From IMG/VR virus record IMGVR_UViG_638341086_000008: a stretch of 49,769 nucleotides of DNA; one strand, written 5' to 3'. This document shows positions 4,023 to 19,856 of the stretch, one piece after another. This DNA comes from a virus. Its lineage: Duplodnaviria; Heunggongvirae; Uroviricota; Caudoviricetes. The notes under the pieces are model-generated. The model was not told the origin of the DNA. It ran no database searches and saw only the letters and a program-made list of their open reading frames with translations. How positions within the stretch are numbered: position 1 is the first letter of the stretch; each line of letters starts with the position of its first letter. Made by a program: the position numbers and the translations under genes.

Positions 4023-4041
4023 TAGTTAGTGTGGCTTTTAG

Positions 4042-4293: not shown

Positions 4294-4365
4294 CGATTTC
4301 TTTATCTCTTACATCAGACGAGCGCCGGTTGCAGAATACCAGTCACAACCGGCGACAGTTGAACA

Positions 4366-6837
4366 TTAAGAATCAGCCTGACTCGGGATCAGTTTTTGCC
4401 AGATAACTGAAACGTATTTTGCCTGGTAACGGGCGTCATCAAGTGCATTATGGCGCTCACCTTCGAATGGAATAGCCGTTCTGGCATCGAAGTCTATGGC
4501 TTTCCCCAGCTCAACGATTGTGCGTACATCGCGATCGTTGTAGTAACGCCACGGGCAGGGGATCCCCTGCCGTTCGTATGAACGGCGCAAAATCGTGTTG
4601 TCGAAGTTGGCTCCATTTCCCCAAACCTGAACAAAAAATTCACCGGAGTTTTCGTCGATAAATTCCCGCAATTGTAACAGTGCATCATCTAACGGGATTT
4701 CATCGGTCATAATGGCAGATTGCGCTTCGCGTGATTGCTTAAGCCACCATTTAATGGTGTCCCGATCAATGACTCCGCCAGCAGTTTCCAGATCGATAGT
4801 CTTACTAAATTCCGGTCCCATATCTCCGGTTTGCGGATCGAAAAATATTGCACCTATTGAGATGATCGGGGCATCAGGATTTTTTCCCATGGTTTCAAGG
4901 TCGATCATTAGATGGTCACACGTCCTGCTGGTGGATGTGATTTCGTGATGACCGTTCACCTTAATTGGGTGATCTGCCGTCTCGCCAGTTTCATTATCGC
5001 TATTGTGATGCTGATTGCCGCCAGTGTTCTCCTTGTGTGGATGTTCAGCGCCTTCCATTTCCTCCGGATCATCTTCCTGAACTTCAACCTGATACTCTTC
5101 ATCGAATGTTTCTTGGTATGTTGCGTCGCCCATCACCGCGCCACAATCAGGGCAGTTGCCGTCGCCGGTCTGACCGCAGGCGGTGCAGGCTTTTTCCACT
5201 TCCTGTTGCGCCACTGGTTCAGGCTGTTTCGTTTCTGGCTCGTTTTGTAACGCATTTGGACTGTTTTGTTCCGCTTTTTGGTAGTTCCGTTCCGATTCAT
5301 GCTGGTTCTGGTTCACAGAATCGCGGGTCTGGATCCCCTTAACCCATTTCGGATCATTCGGGTCACTAATCCCTTCAACAAATTCACCACGTGATGCAGC
5401 AAGCAACTTATCGGCGTCAGGCTGGCTGATATTGGCTGCCTGCATAATTTTGTTTACTTCGTCAGCGGTAACTTTTATCGGCTCTGGTTGTTCTGAATCT
5501 TCAGCGGTATCTACATTTTGCGGTAAGCCCGTGTATGTGCCATTTTTTCGGGCAAAATATTCTTCTTTTGTGATTTCAGTGGCGCCAGCAGCCAGTGCCT
5601 TATCCAGACCAGAAAGTTTGTTTGCGCGACCGTATTTTTCTCCGTCCTTATCTGCGAAGAGGAAATAGAACGGCCCCTCACGCTCTACAGATGGTTCAGC
5701 TTCCGGCGCGGTTTCATTTTTTGGGATATCAGATACCTCAGTTTCCACTGCATCAGTTTGTGTTTCTGATGACTGGAGAACATCAACAGTGCCCAGGTCT
5801 GTTTCTTCATTCTCAAACACGCCCTTTGTCGTCAGGTATTCGCAGATATATTTGTTCAGTGCTACGGGATCTTTGTGAATGTCGATCGGACGCTCACGGA
5901 CAAGGCCAAAAATAGTTTGGCGGTCGTAGCGAAGGGCATCAGGCTGTTTGCGCATTGATGCCGAGATACGCTTCCAGTCTTCGCGGTCGTTGTCGATAAC
6001 TTCTTTTTTTGCCCAGCGATGGATGCTGCCGTCAATGTTTCCGGCATCCACATCACCAGGCCAGAGAGCGTAGGCCAGTTCGTCATCCAGTGTTTTCCAT
6101 GTCTGCTTGTATTCGCGATGAATGGCAGCAATGACCGGGCTGATTTTTCCTGTTGAATTTTCAGTGTACTGTTGATTGGCTCTGGCGCGGGCGAGATCAA
6201 CAACAGACGTGTATTTTCCGGTTTCCTTGCGTTCACCTTCGCGACGTTTTTTCCAGATGCGCATCTCTGCCTGAATTTCGGGCCATTTAGCACCAGGAAT
6301 ACATTTATGCTTAACCCACCCAATGGCGTGCAACTTAAGCTCCGGATACATGGCGTTAACTTCTGGCATTTTCATCAACGCTTCAACGATATGTCCGTCG
6401 AATGTTGCCATGTCTTCCTGCAACAATTCCTGTGCGCTAATAACCATATCAACGGTGATGTTTTCACATGTGTCGAACTTAACCATGACAGCGTTCTGTA
6501 CTTCAGGGGCCAGCTTGTCAAAAGTGACGTTCATCGGATCGGATTCAGTCTCAACCGGGACAAAAGAAGCAGACTCCTCATCCCAGCGGTTTTCCTGCAT
6601 ATATTCAGCATCCCATGAATCGAGGGCAGGGCGGGGTATGCCAGGTTTATCCTCGCAGACAATAAATTTATAAGCGCAGTCCTGAGCAGCCGGATAATGT
6701 TCCAGGAACTGCCAGTGAAATTTTGCTCGAGCACGGCGTTCGTCGCCAGCTTCAATGGCTGTGGCTACAGCCACAGCGCCTTCTTCCCTTGTTGCCAGTT
6801 CGTCAGGAATAGCGGCGCAAATAAAGACTTTACTCAT
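4366..6837 (-). CDS. Large phage exonuclease-like protein: C-terminal DnaQ-like (DEDDh) 3'-5' exonuclease domain, central Cys4 zinc ribbon, long acidic linker
   Basis: 823-aa ORF; C-terminus carries exonuclease motifs (MIDLETMG..., ...HNALDDARY); CTACG...CPDCG zinc ribbon; position next to xis matches the early-left exo slot of lambdoid phages. Confidence 0.65.
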   Translation of the reverse strand: MSKVFICAAIPDELATREEGAVAVATAIEAGDERRARAKFHWQFLEHYPAAQDCAYKFIVCEDKPGIPRPALDSWDAEYMQENRWDEESASFVPVETESDPMNVTFDKLAPEVQNAVMVKFDTCENITVDMVISAQELLQEDMATFDGHIVEALMKMPEVNAMYPELKLHAIGWVKHKCIPGAKWPEIQAEMRIWKKRREGERKETGKYTSVVDLARARANQQYTENSTGKISPVIAAIHREYKQTWKTLDDELAYALWPGDVDAGNIDGSIHRWAKKEVIDNDREDWKRISASMRKQPDALRYDRQTIFGLVRERPIDIHKDPVALNKYICEYLTTKGVFENEETDLGTVDVLQSSETQTDAVETEVSDIPKNETAPEAEPSVEREGPFYFLFADKDGEKYGRANKLSGLDKALAAGATEITKEEYFARKNGTYTGLPQNVDTAEDSEQPEPIKVTADEVNKIMQAANISQPDADKLLAASRGEFVEGISDPNDPKWVKGIQTRDSVNQNQHESERNYQKAEQNSPNALQNEPETKQPEPVAQQEVEKACTACGQTGDGNCPDCGAVMGDATYQETFDEEYQVEVQEDDPEEMEGAEHPHKENTGGNQHHNSDNETGETADHPIKVNGHHEITSTSRTCDHLMIDLETMGKNPDAPIISIGAIFFDPQTGDMGPEFSKTIDLETAGGVIDRDTIKWWLKQSREAQSAIMTDEIPLDDALLQLREFIDENSGEFFVQVWGNGANFDNTILRRSYERQGIPCPWRYYNDRDVRTIVELGKAIDFDARTAIPFEGERHNALDDARYQAKYVSVIWQKLIPSQADS

Positions 6838-7146
6838 TTTGTTTTAACCTCATGACAGATTTAAGGATGAACAAATCCCTGCCATTGCTGGCATATAAGA
6901 ATGAAACCGGATATTTATTACGGAACTGTTTTAAAGACCTGCCGGGATTTCGATATTATCCTGGTGAATAACTTTATCGACCGGGTAACAGTTACCGGGA
7001 ATTTTCTGTTCGGTTGCTGCAGTCATACACTCCTGCATTGTCCTGTGAACACTGACTGCAATATCAACTGGCACTCCGGAAACAAGAAAAACTGAACCGC
7101 CCCGGGAATCCTGGAGACTAAACTTCCTGAGAAAGAGGTAAACAGG

Positions 7147-7473
7147 ATGACTAAAAATACTCGTTTTTCCCCTGAAGTCCGTCAACGGGCAGTCCGTATG
7201 GTTCTGGAAAGTCAGGGCGAATATGACTCACAATGGGCGACAATTTGTTCCATTGCTCCAAAGATTGGCTGTACGCCGGAGACTCTGCGTGTCTGGGTTC
7301 GCCAGCATGAGCGGGATACCGGGGGCGGTGATGGAGGGCTCACCACCGCTGAACGTCAGCGTCTGAAAGAGCTGGAGCGTGAAAATCGTGAACTGCGCCG
7401 CAGTAACGATATCCTTCGCCAGGCTTCCGCTTATTTTGCGAAGGCGGAGTTCGACCGCCTCTGGAAAAAATAA
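7147..7473 (+). CDS. IS629 OrfA (HTH/leucine zipper transposase subunit)
   Basis: 108 aa, [19 protein letters not shown]...; identical to the inverted copy at 17729..18055. Confidence 0.9.
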
Positions 7474-8360
7474 TGCCACTGCTGGATAAGCTGCGTGAGC
7501 AGTGCGGGGTCGGACCGGTATGCAGTGAACTGCATATTGCCCCGTCAACGTATTACCACTGTCAGCAACAGCGACATCATCCGGATAAACGCAGTGCCCG
7601 TGCGCAGCGCGATGACTGGCTGAAGAAAGAGATACAGCGCGTATACGATGAAAATCACAAGGTATACGGTGTGCGTAAAGTCTGGCGTCAGTTGTTACGG
7701 GAAGGTATCAGAGTGGCCAGATGCACTGTGGCACGTCTCATGGCGGTTATGGGACTTGCCGGTGTTCTCCGGGGTAAAAAGGTCCGTACGACCATCAGCC
7801 GGAAAGCCGTTGCCGCAGGCGACCGCGTAAACCGTCAGTTCGTGGCAGAACGACCTGACCAGCTGTGGGTGGCTGATTTTACTTACGTCAGCACATGGCA
7901 GGGCTTCGTCTATGTGGCGTTCATCATTGATGTGTTTGCCGGATACATTGTGGGGTGGCGGGTCTCATCGTCCATGGAGACGACATTCGTGCTGGATGCA
8001 CTGGAGCAGGCGTTATGGGCCCGTCGACCGTCCGGCACGGTCCATCACAGTGATAAAGGTTCTCAGTATGTATCGCTGGCCTACACACAGCGGCTTAAGG
8101 AAGCCGGATTACTGGCATCAACAGGAAGTACAGGCGACTCGTATGACAACGCGATGGCGGAGAGCATCAATGGTCTTTACAAAGCGGAGGTAATACACCG
8201 TAAGAGCTGGAAAAACCGTGCAGAAGTGGAACTGGCCACACTCACGTGGGTGGACTGGTATAACAATCGACGATTGCTGGAAAGGCTGGGCCATACTCCT
8301 CCGGCAGAAGCAGAAAAAGCTTATTATGCTTCCATCGGAAACGATGATCTGGCAGCCTGA
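7473..8360 (+). CDS. IS629 OrfB (DDE transposase catalytic subunit); probably expressed as OrfAB by -1 frameshift in the A6 run at 7464..7469
   Basis: 295 aa with DDE integrase core; reading frame is -1 relative to orfA; identical to the copy at 16842..17729. Confidence 0.9.
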   Translation: MPLLDKLREQCGVGPVCSELHIAPSTYYHCQQQRHHPDKRSARAQRDDWLKKEIQRVYDENHKVYGVRKVWRQLLREGIRVARCTVARLMAVMGLAGVLRGKKVRTTISRKAVAAGDRVNRQFVAERPDQLWVADFTYVSTWQGFVYVAFIIDVFAGYIVGWRVSSSMETTFVLDALEQALWARRPSGTVHHSDKGSQYVSLAYTQRLKEAGLLASTGSTGDSYDNAMAESINGLYKAEVIHRKSWKNRAEVELATLTWVDWYNNRRLLERLGHTPPAEAEKAYYASIGNDDLAA

Positions 8361-8431
8361 GTTCACAGATAAAACACTCTCCAGGAAACCCGGGGCGGTT
8401 CAGTATACGGCCATTTATACAGGAAAAGCCT

Positions 8432-8602
8432 ATGTCAGAACGTAAAAACTCAAAATCACGCCGTAATTATCTCGTTAAATGTTCCTGCCCAAACTGCACC
8501 CAAGAGTCAGAACACAGTTTTTCAAGAGTACAAAAAGGTGCCCTTTTGATCTGCCCTCATTGCAACAAAGTATTCCAGACAAATCTTAAAGCTGTAGCCT
8601 GA
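8432..8602 (+). CDS. Small zinc-ribbon protein (56 aa, CxxC...CxxC), hypothetical
   Basis: Manually translated ORF MSERKNSKSRRNYLVKCSCPNCTQESEHSFSRVQKGALLICPHCNKVFQTNLKAVA; below the 60-aa cut-off of the ORF track; two CxxC pairs. Confidence 0.35.
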   Translation: MSERKNSKSRRNYLVKCSCPNCTQESEHSFSRVQKGALLICPHCNKVFQTNLKAVA

Positions 8603-8659
8603 TTGATTTTATTAGTAACAAGTATTTTTTATATTTTAATAATATATTTAAAGCAGATA

Positions 8660-8684
8660 ATAAAAAACCCGCCTGAGCGGGTTT
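8660..8684 (-). terminator. Rho-independent terminator hairpin (AAACCCGC-ctga-GCGGGTTT) with flanking A/T runs, downstream of cspB
   Basis: Perfect 8-bp GC-rich stem, 4-nt loop, T-run on the minus strand. Confidence 0.5.
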
Positions 8685-8965
8685 GAGATTGTGGTGCTTT
8701 TTGTGGGAGTCATCCACTTACGCACTTTGTTTTGCCATGCCAGCAGTTAGCTTCTGCTGTAAAACTATTCATGCAGCAAACCTGCACTTCACCACAATGG
8801 TTAGCATACTTTTCCTGATTAAGATTTTGCCAAATATGCTAGCCATTGTTTCATGTATTGGACCTCCTTACTTTTTATTAAAGAGATCCAATATTCACTA
8901 CTCTGTCCGTATCTCTACTCAGGCATCAGCCTTCTTCGTTATCGTATACAGACGAGCGATGAATT

Positions 8966-9181
8966 TTAATCAGTAATGATGACATTTGCTGCTGCAGGAC
9001 CTTTAGCACCACTCTCTATAGAGAAGGTAACCTTTTGACCTTCAAATAAGGTTCGATAATTATCATTCTGAATCGCAGAAAAATGCACAAACACATCTTT
9101 ACTACCATCAACAGGAGAAATAAAGCCGAAACCTTTATCAGCGTTAAACCATTTTACTAAACCAGTCATTTTATTTGACAT
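8966..9181 (-). CDS. cspB: Cold-shock protein CspB-like (CspA family)
   Basis: 71 aa, [21 protein letters not shown]... with RNP1/RNP2 cold-shock domain motifs. Confidence 0.85.
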
Positions 9182-9481
9182 TCTACATTCCTTAACTTGA
9201 GCCTTTCGGCATAAATGGTTTGCATAACAGAAACGACTTCGTACTTAATTGGAGAGACTCAAAGAAGGAATAAGTGAATAACACCTGAAATGAGAACTGC
9301 TTTAGTAAACTACTTCGTATATCGTCTGTTCTTCAAACCGACGCAATCATTAACGCATAGTTGAACATATGAAGCAATGTTTATTTTAGACATCCAGCCA
9401 TCTTCAACCCCATCAAAAAACTATAGCTTTCTTCAGGAACGTGTGTATAGTGCGCCAAGTTATCAGTATTAAGGAATTTTT

Positions 9482-9694
9482 TTGTCCCGTAAAATGACAG
9501 GAATTGTCAAAACCTTTGACGGCAAAAGCGGCAAGGGTCTTATCACCCCATCCGATGGTCGTATCGATGTCCAGCTTCATGTTTCAGCGCTCAATCTCCG
9601 CGATGCAGAAGAAATTACCACCGGATTACGCGTGGAATTTTGCCGGATAAATGGTCTGCGTGGCCCTTCAGCTGCCAATGTTTACCTTTCATGA
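9482..9694 (+). CDS. cspF: Cold-shock-like protein CspF-like
   Basis: 70 aa, [23 protein letters not shown]...; divergently arranged with cspB as in Qin-type prophages. Confidence 0.8.
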
Positions 9695-9978
9695 GCTATA
9701 TTAAAGCTTTAATTTCAGGCCCCATCGGATCACACATGGAGAGTTTTTATGAATAACCCCGTCTGTCTTGATGACTGGTTGATTGGCTTTAAAAGCTTAT
9801 GCTGTACTTTGGCCGTAATAGCTCTGCTAATAATATAATAAGCAGACTCATTGTGTTTAGGGACATTGTACTGGAAGAAAACATTTTAAACATCAGGCAA
9901 ATAACCAAGTCACCAGCTAAATAATAAGTTAACAGACATGAGTCCCGGGATGAGATTCAACATTACCATTGCCCCATT

Positions 9979-10009
9979 TAAAGCACAAAACCCGCTCATC
10001 AGCGGGTTT
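9979..10009 (-). terminator. tR'-like intrinsic terminator just downstream of the late promoter (possibly bidirectional)
   Basis: Hairpin AAAACCCGC-tcatca-GCGGGTTTT followed by a T-rich tract on the minus strand; sits about 40 nt downstream of the predicted promoter, as lambda tR' follows pR'. Confidence 0.55.
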
Positions 10010-10055
10010 TCTACTTTTTCTTAACGTCGGGTATACAAAGCCCATCGTTGAAAAA

Positions 10056-10084
10056 ATTTTATCCATATTTTTTGAAAAATGCAA
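10056..10084 (-). promoter_or_regulatory. Candidate Q-dependent late promoter (pR'-like): TTGCAT - 17 bp - TAAAAT
   Basis: Sigma70-like -35/-10 with 17-bp spacer, immediately downstream of the antiterminator Q gene and upstream of the hairpin at 9979..10009. Confidence 0.5.
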
Positions 10085-10115
10085 ACATCATGTCGCCATC
10101 TTCAGCAAAAATCAT

Positions 10116-10868
10116 TTATCTCGTCACCTTCCTCAATTGCGCTTCCGCGTATGCTTCTTCCTGCCAGCACTTTGTTACCAGTTTACCAATGACGTCCGCA
10201 TACCCCTTATACCACTGATAATCGGTCAGGTCTGGTACCAGCTTCTGGACATGACGTCGTGCCAGCGTGGTCGGTAAACGACTAAACCGGTTTCCATTAC
10301 AACGCCCACAAATCTTATATACCGGTACGCCATGAAACCGGGTTCTTTTTTCATCCAGAACAATCCCTTTACCCTTACACCCTCTGCACGCTGTGCTGAC
10401 TTCGCCCTTACCATGGCAATGCTGACATAGTTCCTTCACCCATTCTTCCTTGATTACAGATTCCCCGCGTCTGTAGTGTTTCACCACTTCGCGCAATACA
10501 TTATAAAATCCCGTACCTGAACAATGCTCACAGCGAGCCTTACTTGCCGCAGACCTGGAGTAATCAGCAAAGGCAAAACTCACGAGGTAAGGAATAATCT
10601 GTAACCGGATTTCTTCACTCAATTTGTTCAATGTCGGGTTATCCAGTGCCATCGCGTAATTTAGCAGGCCTTCAATCGCAAACTGAGGGTCCTGAACACC
10701 AACTTTTGCCAGAAATAAGGCCAACCCAAGTGGTGCTTTCGACTGCACCATCCCCTGCGCTGCCATTACATCCGTAATTGTTAAACAACCGGTGCCTGTC
10801 GCTGGAGCGTCATCGCTCAATTTTGGAGATTTTGGGGAGTAATATTTTGGTAAGGCTTCAAGGTTCAT
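10116..10868 (-). CDS. quuQ: Late-gene antitermination protein Q homologue
   Basis: ORF with multiple CxxC zinc-binding motifs (CEHCSGTG, CQHCHGKG, CRGCKGKG, CGRCNG); start taken at the internal Met (MNLEALPKYY) giving ~250 aa; position upstream of the pR'/tR' pair. Confidence 0.75.
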   Translation of the reverse strand: MNLEALPKYYSPKSPKLSDDAPATGTGCLTITDVMAAQGMVQSKAPLGLALFLAKVGVQDPQFAIEGLLNYAMALDNPTLNKLSEEIRLQIIPYLVSFAFADYSRSAASKARCEHCSGTGFYNVLREVVKHYRRGESVIKEEWVKELCQHCHGKGEVSTACRGCKGKGIVLDEKRTRFHGVPVYKICGRCNGNRFSRLPTTLARRHVQKLVPDLTDYQWYKGYADVIGKLVTKCWQEEAYAEAQLRKVTR

Positions 10869-10881
10869 GCTCGTTCTCCAC

Positions 10882-11931
10882 TTACGCCAGTACGCCAATT
10901 GCCAGCGCGCGATCGATAAAACGAAATATCAGCTCCAGTTGGGAGCCATACTTATCTTCAAATGCCACTGTATCCGTATGCAGCTCGTTGTGATGCTTTC
11001 TGCACAAAGGCAACACAAAGAGATCATGTGCTTTTGTTCCCATTCCGCCCTGCCCGTGACCAATCAGATGATGCGGATCGTCGGCTGGCATACCGCAGCA
11101 AGCACACGGCTGTGTCTTAACCCAACGTGTGTATTTCTCCTTAACCCAGCGGCGACGTTTAGGCAGCTTCATGAAAGATTCCGGAGACTCTGGATCAACG
11201 GTGATGCTTACCACCGTCTTTTCCTGTGGTGATTTTTGTTGCTGGTGGGCGTAAGGCAACGGTGCAAGATTTTTTGTGCGTTGTTTCAATATGCTGGTGG
11301 CGGTCTGCTCTCCCGGTACGATGTCGCTTTCGCGGTACACCGAGCAGATTTTTTCCGCTGGTAATCCCAGCGAACGACGCGATACAGCCTCAGGTAGTGC
11401 ATCCACCACCTGATTGCAGACCGCCCACCAGGATAATTCAGCCAAAGATAATTCCCGCTCCTGCGTACCGCTTATTGCGTGACGGATGACGTCAATCACC
11501 CATGCTGTCAGATTTTGTTGAGCAAGCAGCTCCAGTGATTCCGATGTCTGGTCACGCAGTTGGTTGTCGCAGTGCCAGCACAACACCATTGCGCCGGTAC
11601 CATAACGGTGAATGACTGTTTCAGTGTGATGGTAATCGCCATTAGGCCACTGGCAGGATGTAACATGACGTAATAGCCAGTCGGACAATGCGCCAACGCC
11701 GCCAGCAGCACGAATCACCCGTTCGTTACTAAAAAACGGCAGCAATGTTTTGTCTTCCGCCAGCGGCTGGCGAACGGCAGGAACGACTCCGGATGGCAGA
11801 TTACGCATGCTTTTTGGTTCCGGTTCCACCAGCACTCGAGGATTATGAAATATCTGTATGGATTCACGGCCCGGCTTAAGGACCACCAGCCCAAGCTCAG
11901 GCACCAGAACAGGTCTAAGTAATACCCGCAC
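10882..11931 (-). CDS. ydfU: DUF968-family prophage protein (YdfU-like), C-terminal Cys/His-rich motif
   Basis: Long ORF with C-terminal ...CACCGMPADDPHHL...CRKHHNELH; start placed at the GTG at 11931..11929 preceded by GGAGG, giving 349 aa and removing the overlap with the upstream ORF. Confidence 0.7.
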   Translation of the reverse strand: MRVLLRPVLVPELGLVVLKPGRESIQIFHNPRVLVEPEPKSMRNLPSGVVPAVRQPLAEDKTLLPFFSNERVIRAAGGVGALSDWLLRHVTSCQWPNGDYHHTETVIHRYGTGAMVLCWHCDNQLRDQTSESLELLAQQNLTAWVIDVIRHAISGTQERELSLAELSWWAVCNQVVDALPEAVSRRSLGLPAEKICSVYRESDIVPGEQTATSILKQRTKNLAPLPYAHQQQKSPQEKTVVSITVDPESPESFMKLPKRRRWVKEKYTRWVKTQPCACCGMPADDPHHLIGHGQGGMGTKAHDLFVLPLCRKHHNELHTDTVAFEDKYGSQLELIFRFIDRALAIGVLA

Positions 11932-11932
11932 G

Positions 11933-12211
11933 TTACCTCCAGATCCGTTGCTGGAAAGTGCGGGACGCACGTGGTGGGCGTTCGGAATAAGGCAGCCTGA
12001 CAGAGATTATCCAGTGCCGATAGTCGAGACTGAGAGCTTTCTTAACCTCGAACCCGCGCCTGCGGTAAGAATGAATCAGCCATTCGGCCTGTTCTGCAGT
12101 GCATGGAGGGTGCTGGAACCATTCAGACTTGAATGCGTGAGAATACCGCCCGTGCGTGCAGGCAAGAACGGGCGAATTATCAGAATTGTAATATTTTGCG
12201 TTGCGTGCCAT
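11933..12211 (-). CDS. Hypothetical phage protein (92 aa) immediately upstream of ydfU
   Basis: ORF with GGAG 8 nt upstream of the ATG; stop abuts the proposed ydfU start; no function assignable. Confidence 0.45.
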   Translation of the reverse strand: MARNAKYYNSDNSPVLACTHGRYSHAFKSEWFQHPPCTAEQAEWLIHSYRRRGFEVKKALSLDYRHWIISVRLPYSERPPRASRTFQQRIWR

Positions 12212-12277
12212 CGGTTTTCTCCGGTGGCACGGTGTTACTCAGCGGGAGTTCAGCCCCGCGCAAGATTGTAGATGAGT

Positions 12278-12529
12278 TTATTCTCCTGAAAAAGCAGAAA
12301 AGCCAGCTTTTATTCCGATCTCTTTCAATGCCTGTAATGAAGTGACAAACTCACCTTCGCGCAAGATAAATCCGTCCGTGACCCGAGCATCCACAAAATT
12401 AATTAACGCAGCCCCATTCTTTCGCAAACACATAATGCGGTAATGACTAACAAGATTTCCATTTTCAACGCACACAGCATAGAGGCCATCTTCACAAAAA
12501 ATTTTACGCAGTTCTTCGATGTTCATCAT
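12278..12529 (-). CDS. rem: Rem-like small prophage protein
   Basis: 83 aa, MMNIEELRKIFCEDGLYAVCVENGN...; position between ydfU and hokD as in Qin. Confidence 0.65.
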   Translation of the reverse strand: MMNIEELRKIFCEDGLYAVCVENGNLVSHYRIMCLRKNGAALINFVDARVTDGFILREGEFVTSLQALKEIGIKAGFSAFSGE

Positions 12530-12640
12530 CAGAATCCTTCCGGATAATTAGCTCTCCCCTTTAAGGGACCATCCCTCTTATCCCTGCGCGCTACTTAAGT
12601 ATTTTTGATTCTATTCCGGCACCGTCCAGAACTTCAAACG

Positions 12641-12677
12641 CGTTGAAAATAAAAACAAAAACCCGCCGAAGCGGGTT
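12641..12677 (-). terminator. Rho-independent terminator downstream of the relB-relE-hokD operon
   Basis: Hairpin AACCCGC-cgaa-GCGGGTT followed on the minus strand by TTTTTGTTTTTATTTTC. Confidence 0.6.
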
Positions 12678-12745
12678 AAGTGCGGGTGCGTTGAGGATGC
12701 CTGCCACATCAGAGGTGGCGAGGGATTTCTCCCCCGCCGGGTCTC

Positions 12746-12901
12746 TTACTCCTCAGGTTCGTAAGCTGTGAAGACAGCGACCTCCGTCTGGCCGGTTCGG
12801 ATTCGTACCTCGCAGAGGTCTTTCCTCGTTACCAGTGCCGTCACTATGACGGTTAAACAGATGACGATCAGGGCGATTAACATCGCCTTTTGCTGCTTCA
12901 T
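12746..12901 (-). CDS. hokD: Hok-family membrane toxin (HokD/RelF-like), 51 aa
   Basis: Manual translation gives MKQQKAMLIALIVICLTVIVTALVTRKDLCEVRIRTGQTEVAVFTAYEPEE; absent from the ORF track because it is under 60 aa; a spurious plus-strand ORF (12768..12989) overlaps it. Confidence 0.85.
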   Translation of the reverse strand: MKQQKAMLIALIVICLTVIVTALVTRKDLCEVRIRTGQTEVAVFTAYEPEE

Positions 12902-12972
12902 AGCCTGCTTCTCCTGTCAACGCAAAGCAGAAGTGTCACCTTCGGTGCGAAACAGAGATGTCATGCTTTGGT

Positions 12973-13260
12973 TCAGAGAATGCGTTTGACCGCCTCGCTA
13001 TATACTTCCGAGCGTTCTCTTTTCCCAACAGAAATCACGAAAACGACAACTTTCTCGTCTATAACCTGGTATACAAGGCGATAGCCTGAAGACCGGAGCT
13101 TAATCTTGTAACAATCAGGCATACCACGGAGCTTGTTTGCTTCAATCCGGGGTGACTCAAGTACTTCAACCAGCTTCTTTTTCAACTGTTCACGTACCGT
13201 CGAGCCCAGCTTTCGCCATTCCTTTAGTGCCCGCTCGTCAAAATCCAGAAAATACGCCAT
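12973..13260 (-). CDS. relE: RelE mRNA interferase toxin
   Basis: 95 aa, MAYFLDFDERALKEWRKL...; ATGA overlap with relB (shared position 13260). Confidence 0.9.
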   Translation of the reverse strand: MAYFLDFDERALKEWRKLGSTVREQLKKKLVEVLESPRIEANKLRGMPDCYKIKLRSSGYRLVYQVIDEKVVVFVISVGKRERSEVYSEAVKRIL

Positions 13261-13499
13261 CAGAGTTCATCCAGCGTCACACGTACTGGCTTAGGATTAC
13301 GAAGCCGTTCTTTCACTATCTCCACAAGTTCAGCATCTTCATCACTCAGGAGTGTCTGTTTGAACGGCAAGCGTTCATTGTCAGCGATATACTCGAGCAT
13401 GAGACGAAGCGCTTCAGAAGGAGTTACACCCATTTTTTCAAGCGCGGCGTAAGAACGCGCTTTAAGTTCATCGTCAATACGCAGGTTAATGCTACCCAT
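13260..13499 (-). CDS. relB: RelB antitoxin
   Basis: 79 aa, MGSINLRIDDELKARSYAALEKMGVTPSEALR...; RHH-type antitoxin upstream of relE. Confidence 0.9.
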   Translation of the reverse strand: MGSINLRIDDELKARSYAALEKMGVTPSEALRLMLEYIADNERLPFKQTLLSDEDAELVEIVKERLRNPKPVRVTLDEL

Positions 13500-13510
13500 G
13501 TCTTACACCT

Positions 13511-13536
13511 CTTGTAATTACAAATGTCATTACAAG
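13511..13536 (-). promoter_or_regulatory. relO-like operator: inverted TTGTAAT repeats (CTTGTAATTACAAATGTCATTACAAG) immediately upstream of relB
   Basis: Palindromic hexad repeats within 12-40 bp of the relB start codon, typical of the RelB/RelE autoregulated operator. Confidence 0.55.
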
Positions 13537-13829
13537 TATCGCACTACAACATGCTTAGGGCAAGTCACGAAGGAAGTCAGAAAGTAGTCGTAAGAACGGT
13601 GATCACTGTCCGCTTTGTGCCAGGAGCAGCCATTGCTAAGTCCATCCTGTATTGTGCAGGTCAGCTCGTTTTTAAAGAGTCCGGCCATCATCTTACTGGT
13701 ACAGACACCATATACTTTGTGACGGTCAGGCTACATATGCACAACTCAACTTATTCATCTATTTTTTGCTTTAGCATGTCAGTGTTGCTTTCTCGTCGGC
13801 GGGTGAGCGGTGACCTGACCTGTCGATAA
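13524..13829 (+). CDS. Hypothetical 101-aa ORF divergent from relB (possibly ydfV-like)
   Basis: Open reading frame only; start codon lies inside the relO palindrome; no recognisable motif. Kept at low confidence. Confidence 0.25.
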   Translation: MSLQVSHYNMLRASHEGSQKVVVRTVITVRFVPGAAIAKSILYCAGQLVFKESGHHLTGTDTIYFVTVRLHMHNSTYSSIFCFSMSVLLSRRRVSGDLTCR

Positions 13830-14101
13830 AGGAACGTAGCACGTTTTATGCAACACCCGCATGCGGCAGAAAATTATTGCCGAACGTTTACCCCTGTCAA
13901 CAAGCTTTACTTTCTGAGGCGCGCCAGCCCGCGAGGAAAACAATCTGAACATCAAACAATTAATGACACAAGAAATACGATTAAAGATTTTTTTGTGCAT
14001 GCCGATAGTGCTTTTTGTAAGCGTAAACTGACCGCCGTATGTAGCCATCAGACGAGAATTGGTAACTTAGACGCCCATCTGATATAGACGGACATCTAAG
14101 T

Positions 14102-14527
14102 ATGGAATTACAGGACTGGCGAAAAGAACCTCGTAAAAACTATTCGAATGAATTCAAACTTCGTATGGTGGAACTGGCATCACAACCTGGAGCTTGTGTT
14201 GCACAGATTGCACGTGAAAATGGCGTCAATGATAATGTTATTTTCAAATGGCTCAGGCTCTGGCAGAACGAAGGGCGTGTTTCGCGGCGTCTTCCGGTAA
14301 CGACCTCTTCTGACACTGGCGTTGAATTATTACCTGTAGAAATAACGCCGGATGAGCAGAAAGAACCTGTGGCGGCCATTGCGCCGTCTTTATCCACTTC
14401 CACTCAGACCAGAGTCAGTGCCAGTTCCTGCAAGGTGGAATTCCGTCACGGTAACATGACGCTGGAAAATCCATCGCCAGAGCTGCTCACAGTGTTGATC
14501 CGTGAACTGACCGGGAGGGGAAGATGA
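14102..14527 (+). CDS. tnpA: IS66-family TnpA (copy 2)
   Basis: 141 aa; HTH region ASQPGACVAQIARENGVNDNVIFKWLR. Confidence 0.8.
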   Translation: MELQDWRKEPRKNYSNEFKLRMVELASQPGACVAQIARENGVNDNVIFKWLRLWQNEGRVSRRLPVTTSSDTGVELLPVEITPDEQKEPVAAIAPSLSTSTQTRVSASSCKVEFRHGNMTLENPSPELLTVLIRELTGRGR

Positions 14528-14874
14528 TCTCACTCCCATCAGGTACCCGTATCTGGCTCGTTGCCGGCGTTACCGATATGCGTAAATCCTTCAACGGACT
14601 GGGAGAACAGGTACAACATGTGCTGAATGATAATCCCTTCTCCGGTCACCTGTTTATCTTCCGTGGCCGACGGGGTGACACCGTCAAAATTCTTTGGGCT
14701 GATGCTGATGGTCTGTGCCTGTTCACCAAACGCCTGGAGGAAGGCCAGTTTATCTGGCCTGCGGTACGTGACGGCAAGGTATCCATTACCCGCTCGCAAC
14801 TGGCAATGCTCCTCGATAAGCTGGACTGGCGTCAGCCAAAAACATCCAGCCGTAACTCACTGACAATGTTGTAA
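14524..14874 (+). CDS. tnpB: IS66-family TnpB (copy 2)
   Basis: 116 aa; MISLPSGTRIWLVAGVTDMRKSFNGL... conserved with the other copies; ATGA overlap with tnpA. Confidence 0.85.
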   Translation: MISLPSGTRIWLVAGVTDMRKSFNGLGEQVQHVLNDNPFSGHLFIFRGRRGDTVKILWADADGLCLFTKRLEEGQFIWPAVRDGKVSITRSQLAMLLDKLDWRQPKTSSRNSLTML

Positions 14875-14904
14875 AAAACTCCTGACCGCATTATAAAAAC
14901 GGTC

Positions 14905-16517
14905 ATGAGTCAGAAATACCTCATTCGCATCGCAGAGCTGGAAAGGTTGCTCTCTGAGCAGGCTGAAGCCCTCCGTCAGAAAGACCAGCAACTGAGTCTG
15001 GTTGAAGAGACGGAAGCCTTCCTGCGCTCTGCACTGACACGTGCCGAAGAAAAGATCGAAGAAGATGAACGGGAAATAGAACATCTGCGGGCTCAGATAG
15101 AAAAACTGCGCCGGATGCTGTTCGGTACCCGTTCTGAAAAACTGCGTCGTGAAGTTGAACTGGCTGAGGCTCTGCTGAAACAACGTGAACAGGACAGCGA
15201 TCGTTACAGTGGGCGGGAAGACGATCCTCAGGTTCCCCGCCAGTTGCGACAGTCGCGCCATCGTCGTCCGTTACCGGCACACCTTCCCCGTGAAATACAC
15301 CGCCTGGAGCCAGAAGAAAGCTGTTGCCCGGAGTGTGGCGGTGAGCTGGATTATCTGGGGGAAGTCAGCGCTGAACAGCTGGAACTGGTGAGCAGTGCCC
15401 TGAAAGTGATCCGCACAGAACGGGTAAAAAAAGCCTGTACAAAATGTGACTGTATTGTTGAAGCACCGGCGCCGTCCCGCCCGATAGAGCGTGGTATCGC
15501 GGGCCCCGGATTACTTGCCCGCGTGTTAACGGGAAAATACTGCGAACATCTGCCACTGTATCGTCAGAGTGAAATCTTTGCCCGCCAGGGTGTCGAACTG
15601 AGCCGGGCCTTACTCTCCAACTGGGTTGACGCGTGCTGCCAGTTAATGACACCGGTGATGATGCCCTGTACCGTTATGTAATGAACACCCGCAAGGTTCA
15701 CACTGATGACACACCGGTAAAGGTACTGGCACCGGGTCAGAAAAAGGCGAAAACAGGGCGTATCTGGACGTATGTCCGGGATGATCGCAATGTGGGTTCG
15801 TCATCTCCTCCAGCGGTCTGGTTCGCGTACTCGCCGAACCGGCAGGGGAAACACCCGGAGCAACACCTCCGCCCCTTCCGGGGTATCCTGCAGGCGGATG
15901 CGTTCACAGGTTACGACAGGTTGTTCAGTGCAGAACGTGAAGGTGGTGCACTGACAGAAGTTGCGTGCTGGGCCCATGCCCGGCGAAAAATCCACGATGT
16001 ATACATCAGCAGCAAAAGTGCGACGGCAGAAGAAGCCCTGAAGCGAATCAGTGAACTGTACGCCATCGAGGATGAAATACGGGGATTACCGGAGTTAGAG
16101 CGTCTTGCCGTCAGGCAGCAGCGAAGCAAAGTGTTACTGACGTCGCTGCATGAATGGATGGTGGAGAAGAATGGTACGCTGTCGAAAAAATCCAGACTGG
16201 GCGAAGCGTTCAGCTATGTACTGAATCAGTGGGATGCCCTCTGTTATTACAGTGATGACGGTCTGGCGGAGGCGGATAATAATGCTGCGGAAAGAGCGCT
16301 TCGTGCAGTCTGTCTCGGAAAGAAAAACTTTATGTTCTTTGGCAGCGATCACGGCGGCGAGCGTGGAGCACTGTTGTACGGGCTGATCGGCACCTGCCGT
16401 CTGAACGGTATCGATCCGGAAGCGTATCTGCGCCATATCCTGAGCGTACTGCCGGAATGGCCTTCCAACCGAGTTGATGAACTCCTGCCATGGAACGTAG
16501 TACTCACCAATAAATAA
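14905..16517 (+). pseudogene. tnpC: IS66-family transposase TnpC (copy 2), interrupted by a frameshift near 15633..15681
   Basis: Two overlapping ORFs (14905..15681 and 15633..16517) together cover the full TnpC alignment seen in copy 1; the frame changes where copy 1 reads ..[14 protein letters not shown]... Confidence 0.75.
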
Positions 16518-16570
16518 GCGTCAATACGGTGCTCCGTTGACGCTTACTGCTTTTTTAAAAGGAGAAATCT

Positions 16571-16799
16571 ATGTCTGTCACAATTCAGGGAAATACCTCA
16601 ACCGTTATTTCAAACAACTCCGCCCCGGAAGGAACATCAGAAATAGCCAAAATCACAAGACAAATTCAGGTGCTGACTGAAAAGCTTGGGAAAATCTCAT
16701 CGGAAGAGGGGATGACGACACAGCAGAAAAAAGAAATGGCTGCATTGGTACAGAAGCAAATTGAAAGCCTCAGGGCTCAACTGGAGCAGTTGTTAAGGC
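16571..16799 (+). pseudogene. flxA: flxA-like gene truncated at its 3' end by IS629 copy 2
   Basis: ORF begins MSVTIQGNTSTVISNNSAPEG...; from codon 77 onward the reading frame runs into the IS629 terminal repeat (16800). Confidence 0.6.
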
Positions 16800-16841
16800 T
16801 GAACCGCCCCGGGTTTCCTGGAGAGTATTTTATCTGTGAAC

Positions 16842-17729
16842 TCAGGCTGCCAGATCATCGTTTCCGATGGAAGCATAATAAGCTTTTTCTGCTTCTGCCG
16901 GAGGAGTATGGCCCAGCCTTTCCAGCAATCGTCGATTGTTATACCAGTCCACCCACGTGAGTGTGGCCAGTTCCACTTCTGCACGGTTTTTCCAGCTCTT
17001 ACGGTGTATTACCTCCGCTTTGTAAAGACCATTGATGCTCTCCGCCATCGCGTTGTCATACGAGTCGCCTGTACTTCCTGTTGATGCCAGTAATCCGGCT
17101 TCCTTAAGCCGCTGTGTGTAGGCCAGCGATACATACTGAGAACCTTTATCACTGTGATGGACCGTGCCGGACGGTCGACGGGCCCATAACGCCTGCTCCA
17201 GTGCATCCAGCACGAATGTCGTCTCCATGGACGATGAGACCCGCCACCCCACAATGTATCCGGCAAACACATCAATGATGAACGCCACATAGACGAAGCC
17301 CTGCCATGTGCTGACGTAAGTAAAATCAGCCACCCACAGCTGGTCAGGTCGTTCTGCCACGAACTGACGGTTTACGCGGTCGCCTGCGGCAACGGCTTTC
17401 CGGCTGATGGTCGTACGGACCTTTTTACCCCGGAGAACACCGGCAAGTCCCATAACCGCCATGAGACGTGCCACAGTGCATCTGGCCACTCTGATACCTT
17501 CCCGTAACAACTGACGCCAGACTTTACGCACACCGTATACCTTGTGATTTTCATCGTATACGCGCTGTATCTCTTTCTTCAGCCAGTCATCGCGCTGCGC
17601 ACGGGCACTGCGTTTATCCGGATGATGTCGCTGTTGCTGACAGTGGTAATACGTTGACGGGGCAATATGCAGTTCACTGCATACCGGTCCGACCCCGCAC
17701 TGCTCACGCAGCTTATCCAGCAGTGGCAT
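16842..17729 (-). CDS. IS629 OrfB (copy 2)
   Basis: Protein identical to 7473..8360. Confidence 0.9.
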   Translation of the reverse strand: MPLLDKLREQCGVGPVCSELHIAPSTYYHCQQQRHHPDKRSARAQRDDWLKKEIQRVYDENHKVYGVRKVWRQLLREGIRVARCTVARLMAVMGLAGVLRGKKVRTTISRKAVAAGDRVNRQFVAERPDQLWVADFTYVSTWQGFVYVAFIIDVFAGYIVGWRVSSSMETTFVLDALEQALWARRPSGTVHHSDKGSQYVSLAYTQRLKEAGLLASTGSTGDSYDNAMAESINGLYKAEVIHRKSWKNRAEVELATLTWVDWYNNRRLLERLGHTPPAEAEKAYYASIGNDDLAA

Positions 17730-18055
17730 TATTTTTTCCAGAGGCGGTCGAACTCCGCCTTCGCAAAATAAGCGGAAGCCTGGCGAAGGATATCGTTACT
17801 GCGGCGCAGTTCACGATTTTCACGCTCCAGCTCTTTCAGACGCTGACGTTCAGCGGTGGTGAGCCCTCCATCACCGCCCCCGGTATCCCGCTCATGCTGG
17901 CGAACCCAGACACGCAGAGTCTCCGGCGTACAGCCAATCTTTGGAGCAATGGAACAAATTGTCGCCCATTGTGAGTCATATTCGCCCTGACTTTCCAGAA
18001 CCATACGGACTGCCCGTTGACGGACTTCAGGGGAAAAACGAGTATTTTTAGTCAT
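17729..18055 (-). CDS. IS629 OrfA (copy 2)
   Basis: Protein identical to 7147..7473. Confidence 0.9.
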
Positions 18056-18645
18056 CCTGTTTACCTCTTTCTCAGGAAGTTTAGTCTCCAGGATTCCCGG
18101 GGCGGTTCACGCTGCCGTCAGAGGCAAAACAACCAAAACCGCCGAAGGAATGCTCACCAACATGCTCGGAGATATTGCAGCAGAAGCTCAGCTTTATGCT
18201 GAAATTGCTGACGAACGCTACATCGCAGGAGTGACTTGTCAACAGATCTATGAATCTTTAAGAGATAAAAAGCATCAAATGTAGGGTAATATTAAATCGG
18301 AACATTTACATCGCGGAATGTAAAATTTGAATAAAAAGGACTCTTCCATGAGCCAAAATTCCTGAAATCTTAAGGGTAAGATAAAAGGTCTTAATCAGAA
18401 TGACACGTTTTATTAATAAATAAAGCTATTCTTTCATTGCTGTGTTTTTCTTTACAAAAGTAATCCTTGCTATGGGTGGTTAATCATGCGTTAATGGTGT
18501 TCTGGTTTGTTACAAATTTATCTGAAGCAGTCATTGTTATAATTTTATTATTTGTACCTCTTGAGATTTCCTTGTTGGTTTTTCTCTCTGATATTTTTTT
18601 CGGACCATTCTGCCCAAGGGCTAATTTCTTCAAAAGGTAATAATT

Positions 18646-18858
18646 ATGTCTAACAAAATGACTGGTTTAGTGAAATGGTTTAACCCTGAAAAAGGTTTTG
18701 GTTTCATCACGCCGAAAGATGGCAGCAAAGATGTGTTTGTCCATTTCTCAGCAATTCAGAGCAACGATTTCAAAACATTAACTGAGAATCAGGAAGTTGA
18801 ATTTGGTATTGAGAACGGACCTAAAGGTCCTGCCGCTGTTCATGTAGTGGCGCTTTGA
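18646..18858 (+). CDS. cspI: Cold-shock protein CspI-like (CspA family)
   Basis: 70 aa, [34 protein letters not shown]...; long AT-rich 5' leader typical of cold-shock genes. Confidence 0.8.
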
Positions 18859-19129
18859 GGTAGACAATATTACAAACCATATTCACTTTAGATGCCCGTG
18901 TTGTCATGGTTCCCAGTATAGAACATCATCTTTTGATGTTTCTGACATGAATCCTTTCGGGGCAAAATGTATCTTTTGTAAATCAATGATGATTACATTT
19001 GATAATATTTCACAATACTTAAATGCCAGCCGTCTGTCGTTGGATTTAAAAAAGTGAAAATGAAGGCTCCTTCGGGAGCTTTTTTGCTTGGTGTCTATTC
19101 GATGGATACTCACATACTACGGTAACATC

Positions 19130-19360
19130 ATGAAAAAAATCATAGTTTTTTTTAACTCTGAACCAGCAGTGGTAGTGCCAGCGATGACTGGAGTTAACAC
19201 CATCATGCGTGAATATCCAAATGGCGAAAAAACACACCTTACTGTAATGGCCGCAGGGTTTCCATCTCTGACCGGAGATCATAAAGTCATTTATGTAGCC
19301 GCGGATCGACATGTTACTTCAGAAGAAATTCTGGAAGCAGCAATAAGGCTCTTGAGTTGA
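19130..19360 (+). CDS. Small hypothetical prophage protein (ynfN-position ORF)
   Basis: ORF from the internal Met MKKIIVFF...; assigned by its position between cspI and gnsB; weak ribosome-binding site. Confidence 0.3.
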   Translation: MKKIIVFFNSEPAVVVPAMTGVNTIMREYPNGEKTHLTVMAAGFPSLTGDHKVIYVAADRHVTSEEILEAAIRLLS

Positions 19361-19528
19361 TTTGATGCTATTGCATTGATAATTCAGGAAAATTCTCTTT
19401 GTCTGTTTGTGTAAAATTTAGACTATCGTATGTTGATTATTGCGATGTTTCATCTTATCTTTTACACGTTTGCACCATATAATCGACTTACTGTGTAACT
19501 GGAAAGTCATAACAGACTAAAAGAGGAA

Positions 19529-19705
19529 ATGATGAATATTGAAGACTTAAAAACAAAAGCAGAAGCAGATATTTCTGAATATATAACAAAAAAAATTATT
19601 GAACTTAAGAAAAAGACCGGGAAAGAAGTTACCAGTATTCAGTTTACCGCACGGGAAAAAATGACGGGTCTTGAAAGCTATGATGTCAAGATTAATTTAA
19701 TCTGA
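19529..19705 (+). CDS. gnsB: GnsA/GnsB-family small protein (58 aa)
   Basis: Manual translation MMNIEDLKTKAEADISEYITKKIIELKKKTGKEVTSIQFTAREKMTGLESYDVKINLI; AAGAGGAAA ribosome-binding site just upstream; under the ORF-track cut-off. Confidence 0.7.
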   Translation: MMNIEDLKTKAEADISEYITKKIIELKKKTGKEVTSIQFTAREKMTGLESYDVKINLI

Positions 19706-19856
19706 TGTATTCAATAATAAAATTTATCCATAAACCTCGTTTTTACGGGGTTTTGTTATATTTGAATGGTTCCGAATATCTAAATCACAATTGTTGATGG
19801 TTTTTATTAAACCAATGCAGTCCGGCTCAGGAGTGAGAGAAGCCGGACGTTATGGT

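Follow-up and report, generated by a model that had tools for sequence, protein, structure and literature searches.

Inversion and two losses at IS629 termini in the Qin-like prophage of Escherichia coli E110019

How does a prophage come to carry, between two inverted copies of one insertion sequence, a block of genes that points against both of its flanks, and what became of the genes that its relatives have next to that block? The DNA analyzed here (the window, 49,769 nucleotides) is the whole Qin-like prophage, from rspB to ydfJ, of E. coli E110019 (NZ_CP035751.1), whose record is a finished chromosome in one contig. Its integration site is that of Qin in K-12 and of fuller ydfJ/rspB relatives (08-00022, E2865, and O26:H11 strains): rspB sits immediately outside the left edge of the window, ydfJ' lies at its right end, and the integrase gene int' (2835-4007) is found beside rspB. 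The genes held in common with Qin and these relatives are int, xis, exo, ydfD, flxA, ydfV, relBE, hokD, rem, ydfU, ydfT (Q), cspF, cspB, ynfU, cspI, ynfN, and gnsB. However, the canonical Qin-like order (early-left, immunity, replication, flxA to Q, lysis, cspI, terminase) is not found in E110019, which differs from the Qin relatives by an inverted flxA-to-ynfU block, by the absence of 6.2 kb of immunity and replication genes and of a 1.57-kb lysis cassette, and by five IS elements. The E110019 prophage is a rearranged Qin-like derivative. Its head genes belong to the ClpP-protease/capsid-fusion type, whereas LC-1302-2020, KGu016, and G5 have lambda-like ones.

The left flank (2833-7092, minus strand) has the canonical orientation and carries int', xis (4042-4293), the exonuclease gene exo (4366-6837), and ydfD' (6931-7092), which has lost its first 10 codons at an IS629 end. 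It is followed by IS629 copy A (7093-8402, plus strand), an IS3-family element of 1310 bp, and then by the inverted block (8403-16799; 8397 bp), in which we find ynfU (plus), cspB (minus), cspF (plus), the Q antiterminator gene ydfT (10116-10868), ydfU, rem, hokD, and relE/relB (12973-13499), these last all on the minus strand, ydfV (plus), ISEc23, and flxA' (16571-16799, plus; codons 1-76 plus one base). IS629 copy B (16800-18109, minus strand), again of 1310 bp, separates the block from a 3' remnant of rzpQ (18110-18284, plus), 175 nt that hold the last 57 codons of an Rz-like spanin (DUF2514). The right flank, in canonical orientation, starts with a segment (18285-24003, plus) that contains cspI (18646-18858), ymcF, ynfR, ynfN, gnsB, a DUF1398 gene (minus), a small terminase-like DUF1441 gene (21338-21895), and the large terminase gene (21904-24003); head and tail genes come next, up to ydfJ' at the window end.

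Block orientation and lost intervals relative to other ydfJ-site prophages

The original prediction, made from the letters of the sequence and the Qin gene order, held that the block is inverted relative to the int/exo and cspI/terminase flanks, and named alignment to related ydfJ-site prophages as the check. Seven prophages at the rspB/ydfJ site were aligned (4012, LC-1302-2020, KGu016, E2865, F8704-2, 08-00022, and G5), and 7/7 have the flxA-to-ynfU block opposite to E110019. Wherever a relative's flanks give a plus-strand alignment, its block aligns on the minus strand, so that 8403-16799 is reversed relative to both flanks. The Qin order was recovered in every relative examined, including the IS629-free 08-00022; it runs int-xis-exo-ydfD-dicB, on through repressor/cro and replication genes, to ydfW-flxA-ydfV-relBE-hokD-rem-ydfU-Q, and after Q continues as cspF-cspB-ynfU-essD-ydfR-rrrQ-rzpQ-cspI-terminase. 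Relatives with the E110019 order but without IS629 were also looked for, and no relative has that order. 08-00022 is without IS629 at the prophage and is 99.91-100% identical to all three window segments, the left flank being collinear (plus) at 99.93%. Relative to this genome the breakpoints are the IS termini: both block ends and both deletion edges match IS629 termini to the base. A further relative, F8704-2, shows 0 mismatches in 5618 bp of the block and 1 mismatch in 14634 bp of the right flank.

These identities bear on the idea that the block arrived reversed, as an IS629 composite transposon or via replacement from another Qin-like prophage, in a prophage without its center. Two inverted IS629 copies whose IRL ends face outward do have the layout of a composite transposon. 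However, one contiguous target duplicated at the outer ends is not seen (aac vs. cgc), and the outer flanks are not adjacent in the IS-free relative 08-00022, where they lie 13.6 kb apart. Moreover, 08-00022 and F8704-2 match not only the block but also both flanks at 99.9-100% identity, which argues for one lineage rearranged in place and makes an imported block extremely unlikely.

Two intervals of 08-00022 are lost in E110019. The first, of 6164 bp, extends from ydfD codon 10 to flxA codon 77 and contains dicB, a cI-like repressor gene, cro, ydaT, an O-like gene, a DUF977 gene, and ydfW. The second, of 1571 bp, consists of the holin gene essD, ydfR, the endolysin gene rrrQ, and two-thirds of rzpQ, the spanin gene, from its 5' end. 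Just as ydfD is cut at the left IS629, flxA stops after codon 76 at 16799, directly against the IS629 at 16800, as had been noted from the sequence. The accompanying claim that holin, endolysin, spanin, repressor, and replication genes are all missing holds for every class but the spanin, of which the rzpQ remnant persists as the sole trace of the lysis cassette. When 14 proteins of the missing intervals were used in tblastn, the window matched only ydfD aa 10-63, flxA aa 1-76, and the rzpQ C-terminus; lysis, immunity, and replication genes were looked for elsewhere in the prophage and none was found. The 6164-bp segment, searched whole, is uninterrupted in 310 genomes; the best 60 of the 310 do not include E110019, but this cut falls within a group of ties, so that it is weak evidence of absence. 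In a search for the lost DNA beside other IS629 copies, for which four conceivable reciprocal junctions were strung together as one query, joined IS-end pieces rank above any true 203-bp match.

The arrangement appears to be peculiar to E110019. In searches with 200-bp junction queries, the four E110019 junctions are absent from all other genomes among 5426 complete genomes; seeming full-length matches are two-piece joins with the IS a few hundred bp off, except in KGu016, where an independent flxA insertion lies 4 bp off. Likewise, an exact-protein look-up found the chimeric flxA'-IS ORF in no other entry of a large gene index. Junction and exact-protein searches revealed no intermediate, i.e., no genome with either IS629 at these sites plus a duplication and none with the un-inverted deleted form. 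Lineage-mates sought through the junction of ISCro1 with int and through exact-protein searches for ydfD' and the flxA'-IS chimera yielded none that was informative. ISEc23 was considered as a marker common with G5-type matches and rejected, as the G5 ISEc23 sits elsewhere and the match consists of joined pieces.

The orientation of the block in E110019 was read from one public assembly. The junctions of flanks with IS ends are the same in both orientations, which differ only across a whole IS copy, and segments are classically mis-oriented where repeats exceed the length of short reads. The 8.4-kb segment could then have been misplaced between the 1.3-kb repeats, the true order being canonical with both deletions kept, and it is a single assembly that shows the E110019 order. 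Against such an artifact, the chromosome is finished as a single contig, a read of ~2 kb across one IS suffices for orientation, and F8704-2 shows IS629-mediated rearrangement in this prophage type; we consider it quite improbable. The deletions and junctions are real whichever orientation applies. As a milder variant of the single break-and-rejoin event taken up below, and likewise very improbable, the block might still flip back and forth in culture; if this is true, Q-dependent late transcription would alternate between exo-xis-int' and the morphogenesis genes.

IS629 copies and their target sites

Inverted-repeat detection recovered the two inverted IS629 copies that had been described, with a computed repeat of 7093-8403 and 16799-18109, in which the extra base in each arm is a chance match. 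They had been called identical, but they agree at 1309/1310 positions, the one exception being IS position 1283, where A has C and B has T. Both have imperfect terminal inverted repeats starting TGAACCGCCCCGGG (41 nt at 78%), and copy A contains the overlapping orfA (7147-7473) and orfB (7473-8360), which, as in IS629 generally, are joined by a programmed -1 frameshift to encode a DDE transposase of the IS3 family. The transposase scores 312 bits for NCBIfam transpos_IS3 (cut-off 160), and RefSeq marks both the frameshift and an AL1L pseudoknot here. Identity is 99.5% to the KGu016 copy, annotated in RefSeq as "IS3-like element IS629 family transposase," and the choice of the name IS629 over IS1203 is taken from that annotation.

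The IRL of copy A adjoins ydfD' and its IRR adjoins the region 29 nt upstream of ynfU (flanks gaaaaac and gtatacgg); the IRR of copy B adjoins flxA' and its IRL the rzpQ remnant (flanks, in window orientation, gttaaggc and cgctgccg). The original prediction saw no target-site duplication here, direct or cross-matched, and indeed none of 3 or 4 bp is present at either copy: direct comparison gives aac/gta (A) and ggc/cgc (B), and crossed comparison gives aac vs. gcc and tac vs. cgc. Sister copies elsewhere have 3-bp duplications, namely, GCA in KGu016, AAG at copy Y of F8704-2, and AAC for IS1203 in NT1N25. The missing duplications mark rearrangement, not non-membership in IS629. By comparison, 3/3 IS66-family elements of the prophage, each a simple insertion, keep perfect 8-bp duplications, whereas 0/2 IS629 copies do. 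These are ISCro1 (137-2832, plus) in the 3' end of the integrase gene, with ACCTGAAA; ISEc23 (14017-16547, plus) which sits in the inverted block between ydfV and flxA, with TGCTTTTT at 14009-14016 and 16548-16555; and ISEc22 (35076-37528, minus) in a tail gene (C40 peptidase/K-like), with AAAGATAT.

The single difference between A and B is informative about their origin. Among ~14 IS629 right ends in E110019, ~10 carry C1283 (like A) and ~4 carry T1283 (like B), as estimated from counts of places rather than from inspected sequences. Because both alleles occur in several other E110019 copies, the distribution favors A and B being members of different IS629 sublineages of this genome. A fresh mutation in a newly duplicated 1.3-kb copy is unlikely, given that the prophage differs from that of F8704-2 by ~2-3 changes in 20.5 kb. 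The different alleles therefore favor independent insertions plus homologous recombination over a one-step duplicative inversion.

In the latter case, an IS629 already present in flxA would have attacked a target in the lysis region, by duplicative inversion or IS dimer dissolution, so that copy A and the inversion arose at once, with deletions following on both sides of copy A. The near identity of the copies would suit such an event, both junctions of copy B could be primary ones, the flxA-IRR junction lying at a hot spot, one event fewer is needed than with recombination, and "sloppy" strand transfer has been proposed for IS629-associated deletions (bioRxiv 10.1101/2023.06.07.543989). However, the copy-out-paste-in process of the IS3 family regenerates the donor, and duplicative inversions are not expected from it (bioRxiv 10.1101/2023.06.07.543989). 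Instead of a fresh duplicate and a split inverted target duplication, we find alleles that differ, at a site where both occur in several other E110019 copies, which fits two sources, and no split duplication. As no inverted target duplication is left, two extra deletions would still be needed, and a one-step transposase event is thus unlikely.

A proposed history of insertion, loss, and inversion

The proposal of IS629-mediated inversion with adjacent deletions gains support from the finding that the inversion and both losses end exactly at IS629 termini. In the account that we consider fairly likely as a whole, independent IS629 insertions and two losses were combined with an inversion by RecA-type homologous recombination. 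Two IS629 elements of different sublineages would have inserted in opposite orientations into a defective Qin-like lambdoid prophage, one into flxA, a recurrent IS629 insertion site, and the other in or beside the lysis cassette. The flxA copy would have taken the place of the 6.2 kb leftward to ydfD, and the other copy that of the 1.57 kb holding essD, ydfR, rrrQ, and the 5' part of rzpQ. Recombination between the inverted 1.3-kb copies would then account for the flipped 8.4-kb segment, before or after the deletions with equal possibility. Long, near-identical inverted repeats lie exactly at both segment ends, as recombination would have it. The crossed target duplications also expected for such an inversion are missing owing to the accompanying deletions; neither direct nor crossed duplications are left because each copy lost one original flank. 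The deletions may have arisen by IS-adjacent deletion or by recombination with further direct IS629 copies, and the sequence fits either. In other strains, independent IS629/IS1203 insertions fall in flxA a few bases at most from the cut seen here, and since this is a hot spot, the flxA-IRR junction is probably the original insertion junction. Against this history, the two insertions, the two deletions, and the inversion add up to a path of five events or more, no intermediate was found in the searches above, and gene conversion among IS copies, among which recombination is evident, could undo the allele argument.

A single break-and-rejoin event of transposase or IEE type would yield the inversion and both losses at once, if the unit of block and both IS629 copies were cut at its outer IRL ends and rejoined, flipped, to chromosome ends from which 6.2 and 1.6 kb had been resected. 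In that case the IRR junctions should both date from the original insertions and the IRL junctions should both be new, and one IRR does lie at the known hot spot. IEE has microhomology-mediated end-joining activity (PMC9943667). Nevertheless, nothing marks the ynfU-side IRR junction as an original insertion junction, and of the IRL junctions, J1 has just 2 bp (TG) of microhomology and J4 has none, leaving this event very improbable. To our knowledge, no break-and-rejoin of this sort has been documented for IS629.

F8704-2 (O39:NM), with its near-isogenic prophage, also has two inverted IS629 copies, beside flxA and in the lysis cassette, in the relative orientations inferred for E110019 before inversion; its block is canonical, whereas that of E110019 is inverted. 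We considered its copies as the ancestral insertions and rejected them, as they differ from A and B by 2-7 sites on a near-identical backbone and occupy other positions, 296, 495, and 1079 bp away. The F8704-2 insertions are independent of those in E110019, because the copy on the lysis side sits cleanly within ydfR, flanked by the duplication AAG, and is different from A and B at 6-7 sites; the copy next to flxA joins a different prophage region.

IS629 polymorphism in EHEC and EPEC includes insertions, excisions, and IEE-promoted deletions (Kusumoto et al. 2011, as cited in bioRxiv 10.1101/2023.06.07.543989; PMC9943667). The cases described there resemble E110019 in having multicopy IS629 in lambdoid prophages and loss of DNA abutting an intact IS629 end, with no duplication; unlike them, E110019 combines two losses with inversion between both copies. 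Large chromosomal inversions between prophages of O157:H7 arise by homologous recombination at inverted repeats (e.g., PMC8743559, PMC7430833), and they too concern a segment bounded exactly by long, near-identical inverted repeats with flanks otherwise unaltered, but on a scale of hundreds of kb between prophages, as compared with 8.4 kb within one prophage here. Among the papers searched, none names both E110019 and IS629.

Judged by its gene content, the prophage is without repressor, replication, and lysis genes, and its integrase is truncated. The Q antiterminator gene and its presumed late promoter now face IS629 copy A, ydfD', exo, xis, and int', not the terminase, head, and tail genes. 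This is ordinary prophage decay by insertion sequences, a known type of event, with no new mechanism or system. Within one strain, two deletions take out exactly the dangerous or autonomous functions, i.e., the repressor-controlled dicB and ydfD, replication, and holin/endolysin, and the inversion separates the structural genes from the late-regulatory module of Q. The E110019 prophage offers an annotated case for prophage-decay surveys and structural-variant callers, and it cautions against taking the gene order of prophages for granted in IS-rich EPEC and EHEC genomes.

Gene order and inversion of the block

The window reads the E110019 chromosome (NZ_CP035751.1) in reverse, a position in the record being 2184525 minus that in the window; a 19.2-kb query matched this chromosome at 100%. 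E110019 is an atypical EPEC O111:H9 outbreak strain. The entire lambdoid prophage lies inside the window, with rspB just left of the window and ydfJ, truncated, at its right end. By RefSeq annotation, the left part reads ISCro1, int'(-), xis(-), exo(-) and ydfD'(-) (primes mark truncated genes), and then IS629 copy A on the plus strand (7093-8402). The block that follows (8403-16799) carries ynfU(+), cspB(-), cspF(+), ydfT/Q(-), ydfU(-), a hypothetical gene, rem, hokD, relE and relB (all -), ydfV(+), ISEc23(+) and flxA'(+). Beyond IS629 copy B on the minus strand (16800-18109) come 'rzpQ(+), cspI(+), ymcF, ynfR, ynfN, gnsB and a DUF1398 gene (-), the small and large terminase genes, the head and tail genes with ISEc22 within a tail gene, and finally the tail fibre gene, tfaQ, pinQ, ydfK and ydfJ'. 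At this far end pinQ (46562-47152), a Pin-type serine invertase gene, adjoins the tail-fibre assembly gene tfaQ (45890-46465) and forms a dedicated inversion system of its own, with no relation to the block between the IS629 copies; the long tail-fibre gene contains three tandem 132-nt repeats at 44303-44698 (64-77% identity to the reference copy).

We read and aligned seven prophages from this chromosomal site (4012, LC-1302-2020, KGu016, E2865, 08-00022, G5 and, for the right part only, F8704-2); all share one order, in which the flxA-ynfU block runs opposite to that of the window: int-xis-exo-ydfD-dicB-...-repressor-cro-ydaT-O-like-DUF977-...-ydfW-flxA on the left, continuing to the right of flxA as ydfV-relBE-hokD-rem-ydfU-Q-cspF-cspB-ynfU-essD-ydfR-rrrQ-rzpQ-cspI-...-terminase. 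The best reference is 08-00022, which is free of IS629 in the aligned stretch. Both flanks align to its plus strand (2833-7094, 99.93% identity; 18110-21309, 99.91%), whereas the block aligns to its minus strand (8403-14020, 99.93%; 16548-16799, 100%), as expected from the original prediction that the block is inverted relative to both flanks. F8704-2 is almost isogenic: its block is free of mismatches over 5618 bp, and its right flank has a single one over 14634 bp. Since the block is as close to these relatives as the two flanks are, it was inverted in place and not imported.

Among 5426 complete genomes, the 19.2-kb query was covered to at least 80% only in E110019, and each of the four junctions between flank and IS629 was unique to E110019 in the complete genomes searched. 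The chimeric flxA'-IS ORF occurred in no other contig of a large gene index, and the 19.2-kb, junction and exact-ORF searches found no intermediate genome. The orientation of the block is that of a single finished assembly; the junctions are the same in either orientation, and therefore verifying it, or revealing mixtures, would take reads that cross an IS copy from end to end.

Intervals lost at the IS629 copies

Relative to 08-00022, whose coordinates are used here, four breakpoints delimit two intervals lost from the prophage, though perhaps not from the E110019 chromosome. The first, of 6164 bp, runs from after 24253, inside ydfD (first 10 codons lost), to 30417/30418 in flxA, past codon 76. 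It holds dicB, ydfA/ydfB, a cI-like HTH repressor gene, cro/dicC, ydaT, an O-like gene, DUF977, an ISEsa1 remnant, ydfW and the 3' end of flxA, and is contiguous in 310 complete genomes. In the window, flxA is cut exactly at the IS629 end (16799/16800), as had been noticed earlier. The second interval, of 1571 bp, runs from after 36275, in the ynfU-essD spacer 29 nt upstream of ynfU, to 37846/37847 in rzpQ (323 nt lost), and comprises essD, ydfR, rrrQ and the 5' part of rzpQ. When 14 proteins of the lost intervals were compared with the whole window by tblastn, the only matches were ydfD aa 10-63, flxA aa 1-76 and the rzpQ C-terminus; this search found no lysis, immunity or replication genes elsewhere in the prophage. 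The predicted absence of such genes thus stands, except that a spanin remnant survives at 18110-18284.

Origin of the rearrangement

A repeat finder reported a 1311-nt inverted repeat (arms 7093-8403 and 16799-18109), within which IS629 proper occupies 1310 bp. Both copies have the IS3-type two-ORF layout, with a score of 312 bits for orfB against NCBIfam transpos_IS3. The RefSeq annotation includes a programmed frameshift and an AL1L pseudoknot, and each copy is 99.5% identical to one that RefSeq names IS629 family. The original prediction called the copies identical; they are nearly so, differing at the single IS position 1283 (C in A, T in B). It was right that target-site duplications are missing, as comparison of the flanks (gaaaaac-A-gtatacgg and gttaaggc-B-cgctgccg) found no 3- or 4-bp match at either copy, direct or crossed. 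All three IS66-family elements of the prophage carry perfect 8-bp duplications: ISCro1 (137-2832; ACCTGAAA), ISEc23 (14017-16547; TGCTTTTT) and ISEc22 (35076-37528; AAAGATAT). The loss of duplications is therefore specific to IS629 and indicates rearrangement at A and B. Five IS elements thus occupy ~47 kb of prophage, and since the near-isogenic F8704-2 lacks ISEc23 at the corresponding site, the insertions are recent.

When the block is flipped back in silico, the order becomes ydfD'/IRL-IS-IRR/flxA'(-) ... ynfU(-)/IRR-IS-IRL/'rzpQ (IRL and IRR, left and right IS629 ends). This leaves two IS629 copies in opposite orientation, each in place of a lost interval. Such copies would be a substrate for inverted-repeat recombination that flips the block. 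The arrangement would also explain why both direct and crossed duplications are gone, each copy having lost one of its original flanks.

We favor two independent IS629 insertions followed by homologous recombination. Transposase-driven duplicative inversion is not expected of the IS3 family, which moves by copy-out-paste-in (review, 10.1101/2023.06.07.543989). Furthermore, allele-blind IS-end searches gave place counts of 21 and 21, and allele-specific 44-nt searches with the same flanks gave 17 and 11; solving these four counts indirectly yields ~14 IS629 right ends in E110019, of which ~10 carry C1283 and ~4 T1283. A and B therefore derive from different sublineages already in the genome, though gene conversion could blur this count. 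Two linked SNP blocks (positions 380-434, AGGT/GACC; 547/876, GT/AC) occur in all four possible pairings among six IS629 copies from three strains (A and B, and those at the compared loci L008, from F8704-2, and L003), which indicates that IS629 copies recombine or undergo gene conversion. Because only 2-3 changes in 20.5 kb separate the prophage backbone from that of F8704-2, a 1.3-kb copy that had just been duplicated is unlikely to have gained a new mutation.

The deletions could be IS629-adjacent deletions, which are reported for IS629 together with IEE (10.1101/2023.06.07.543989; PMC9943667), or could have arisen by recombination with further, directly oriented IS629 copies. IS629-mediated inversion with deletions, as originally proposed, is supported by the in-place inversion and the losses at both intervals.

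Recurrence and consequences for the prophage

The flxA/IRR junction is probably an original insertion junction; no comparable sign was found for the other three junctions. In KGu016, IS629 has inserted independently into flxA, 4 bp downstream, as a simple insertion (L004, its locus, 15102/18685; duplication GCA), and NT1N25 has IS1203, likewise a simple insertion, at the homologous triplet of a chromosomal flxA paralogue beside yfeR (L005, 9021/10332; duplication AAC). The three insertions share one orientation, IRR facing the 5' part of flxA, and none is more than 4 bp from the homologous site. From these sequences, flxA-family genes look like a local IS629/IS1203 insertion hot spot, hit three times independently. 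The KGu016 copy (L004 15105-18685) is in turn split by a group II intron that carries the reverse transcriptase/maturase gene ltrA.

Like that of E110019, the F8704-2 prophage has two inverted IS629 elements, but at other positions, one 296 bp outside the flxA breakpoint and the other cleanly in ydfR (duplication AAG). Given these different positions, and 6-7 sites at which the ydfR copy departs from A and B, the insertions in the two strains are independent. The flxA-side copy (L008 14732-16329) lacks a target duplication and joins the region downstream of flxA to a 288-bp ISEc23 right-end fragment and a truncated nleC of another prophage. This locus also lacks the Qin-like prophage's early half, a sign of a more extensive rearrangement mediated by IS629. 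Thus, IS629-mediated rearrangement of this prophage type is recurrent. The E110019 case is an undescribed instance of the well-known IS-mediated inversion and deletion in prophage decay; it would not surprise a specialist and offers no route to an open question.

Judged by its gene content, the prophage would no longer be capable of immunity, replication or cell lysis, nor, with int cut by ISCro1, of excision. Just downstream of the gene for the Q antiterminator lie a promoter-like site (10085-10056, minus strand) and a perfect bidirectional terminator-like hairpin (AAAACCCGC...GCGGGTTTT, 9987-10010), candidates for a late promoter and terminator re-aimed by the inversion. If they are such, Q-modified transcription would now run toward IS629 A, ydfD', exo, xis and int', and the terminase, head and tail genes would have lost their late promoter.
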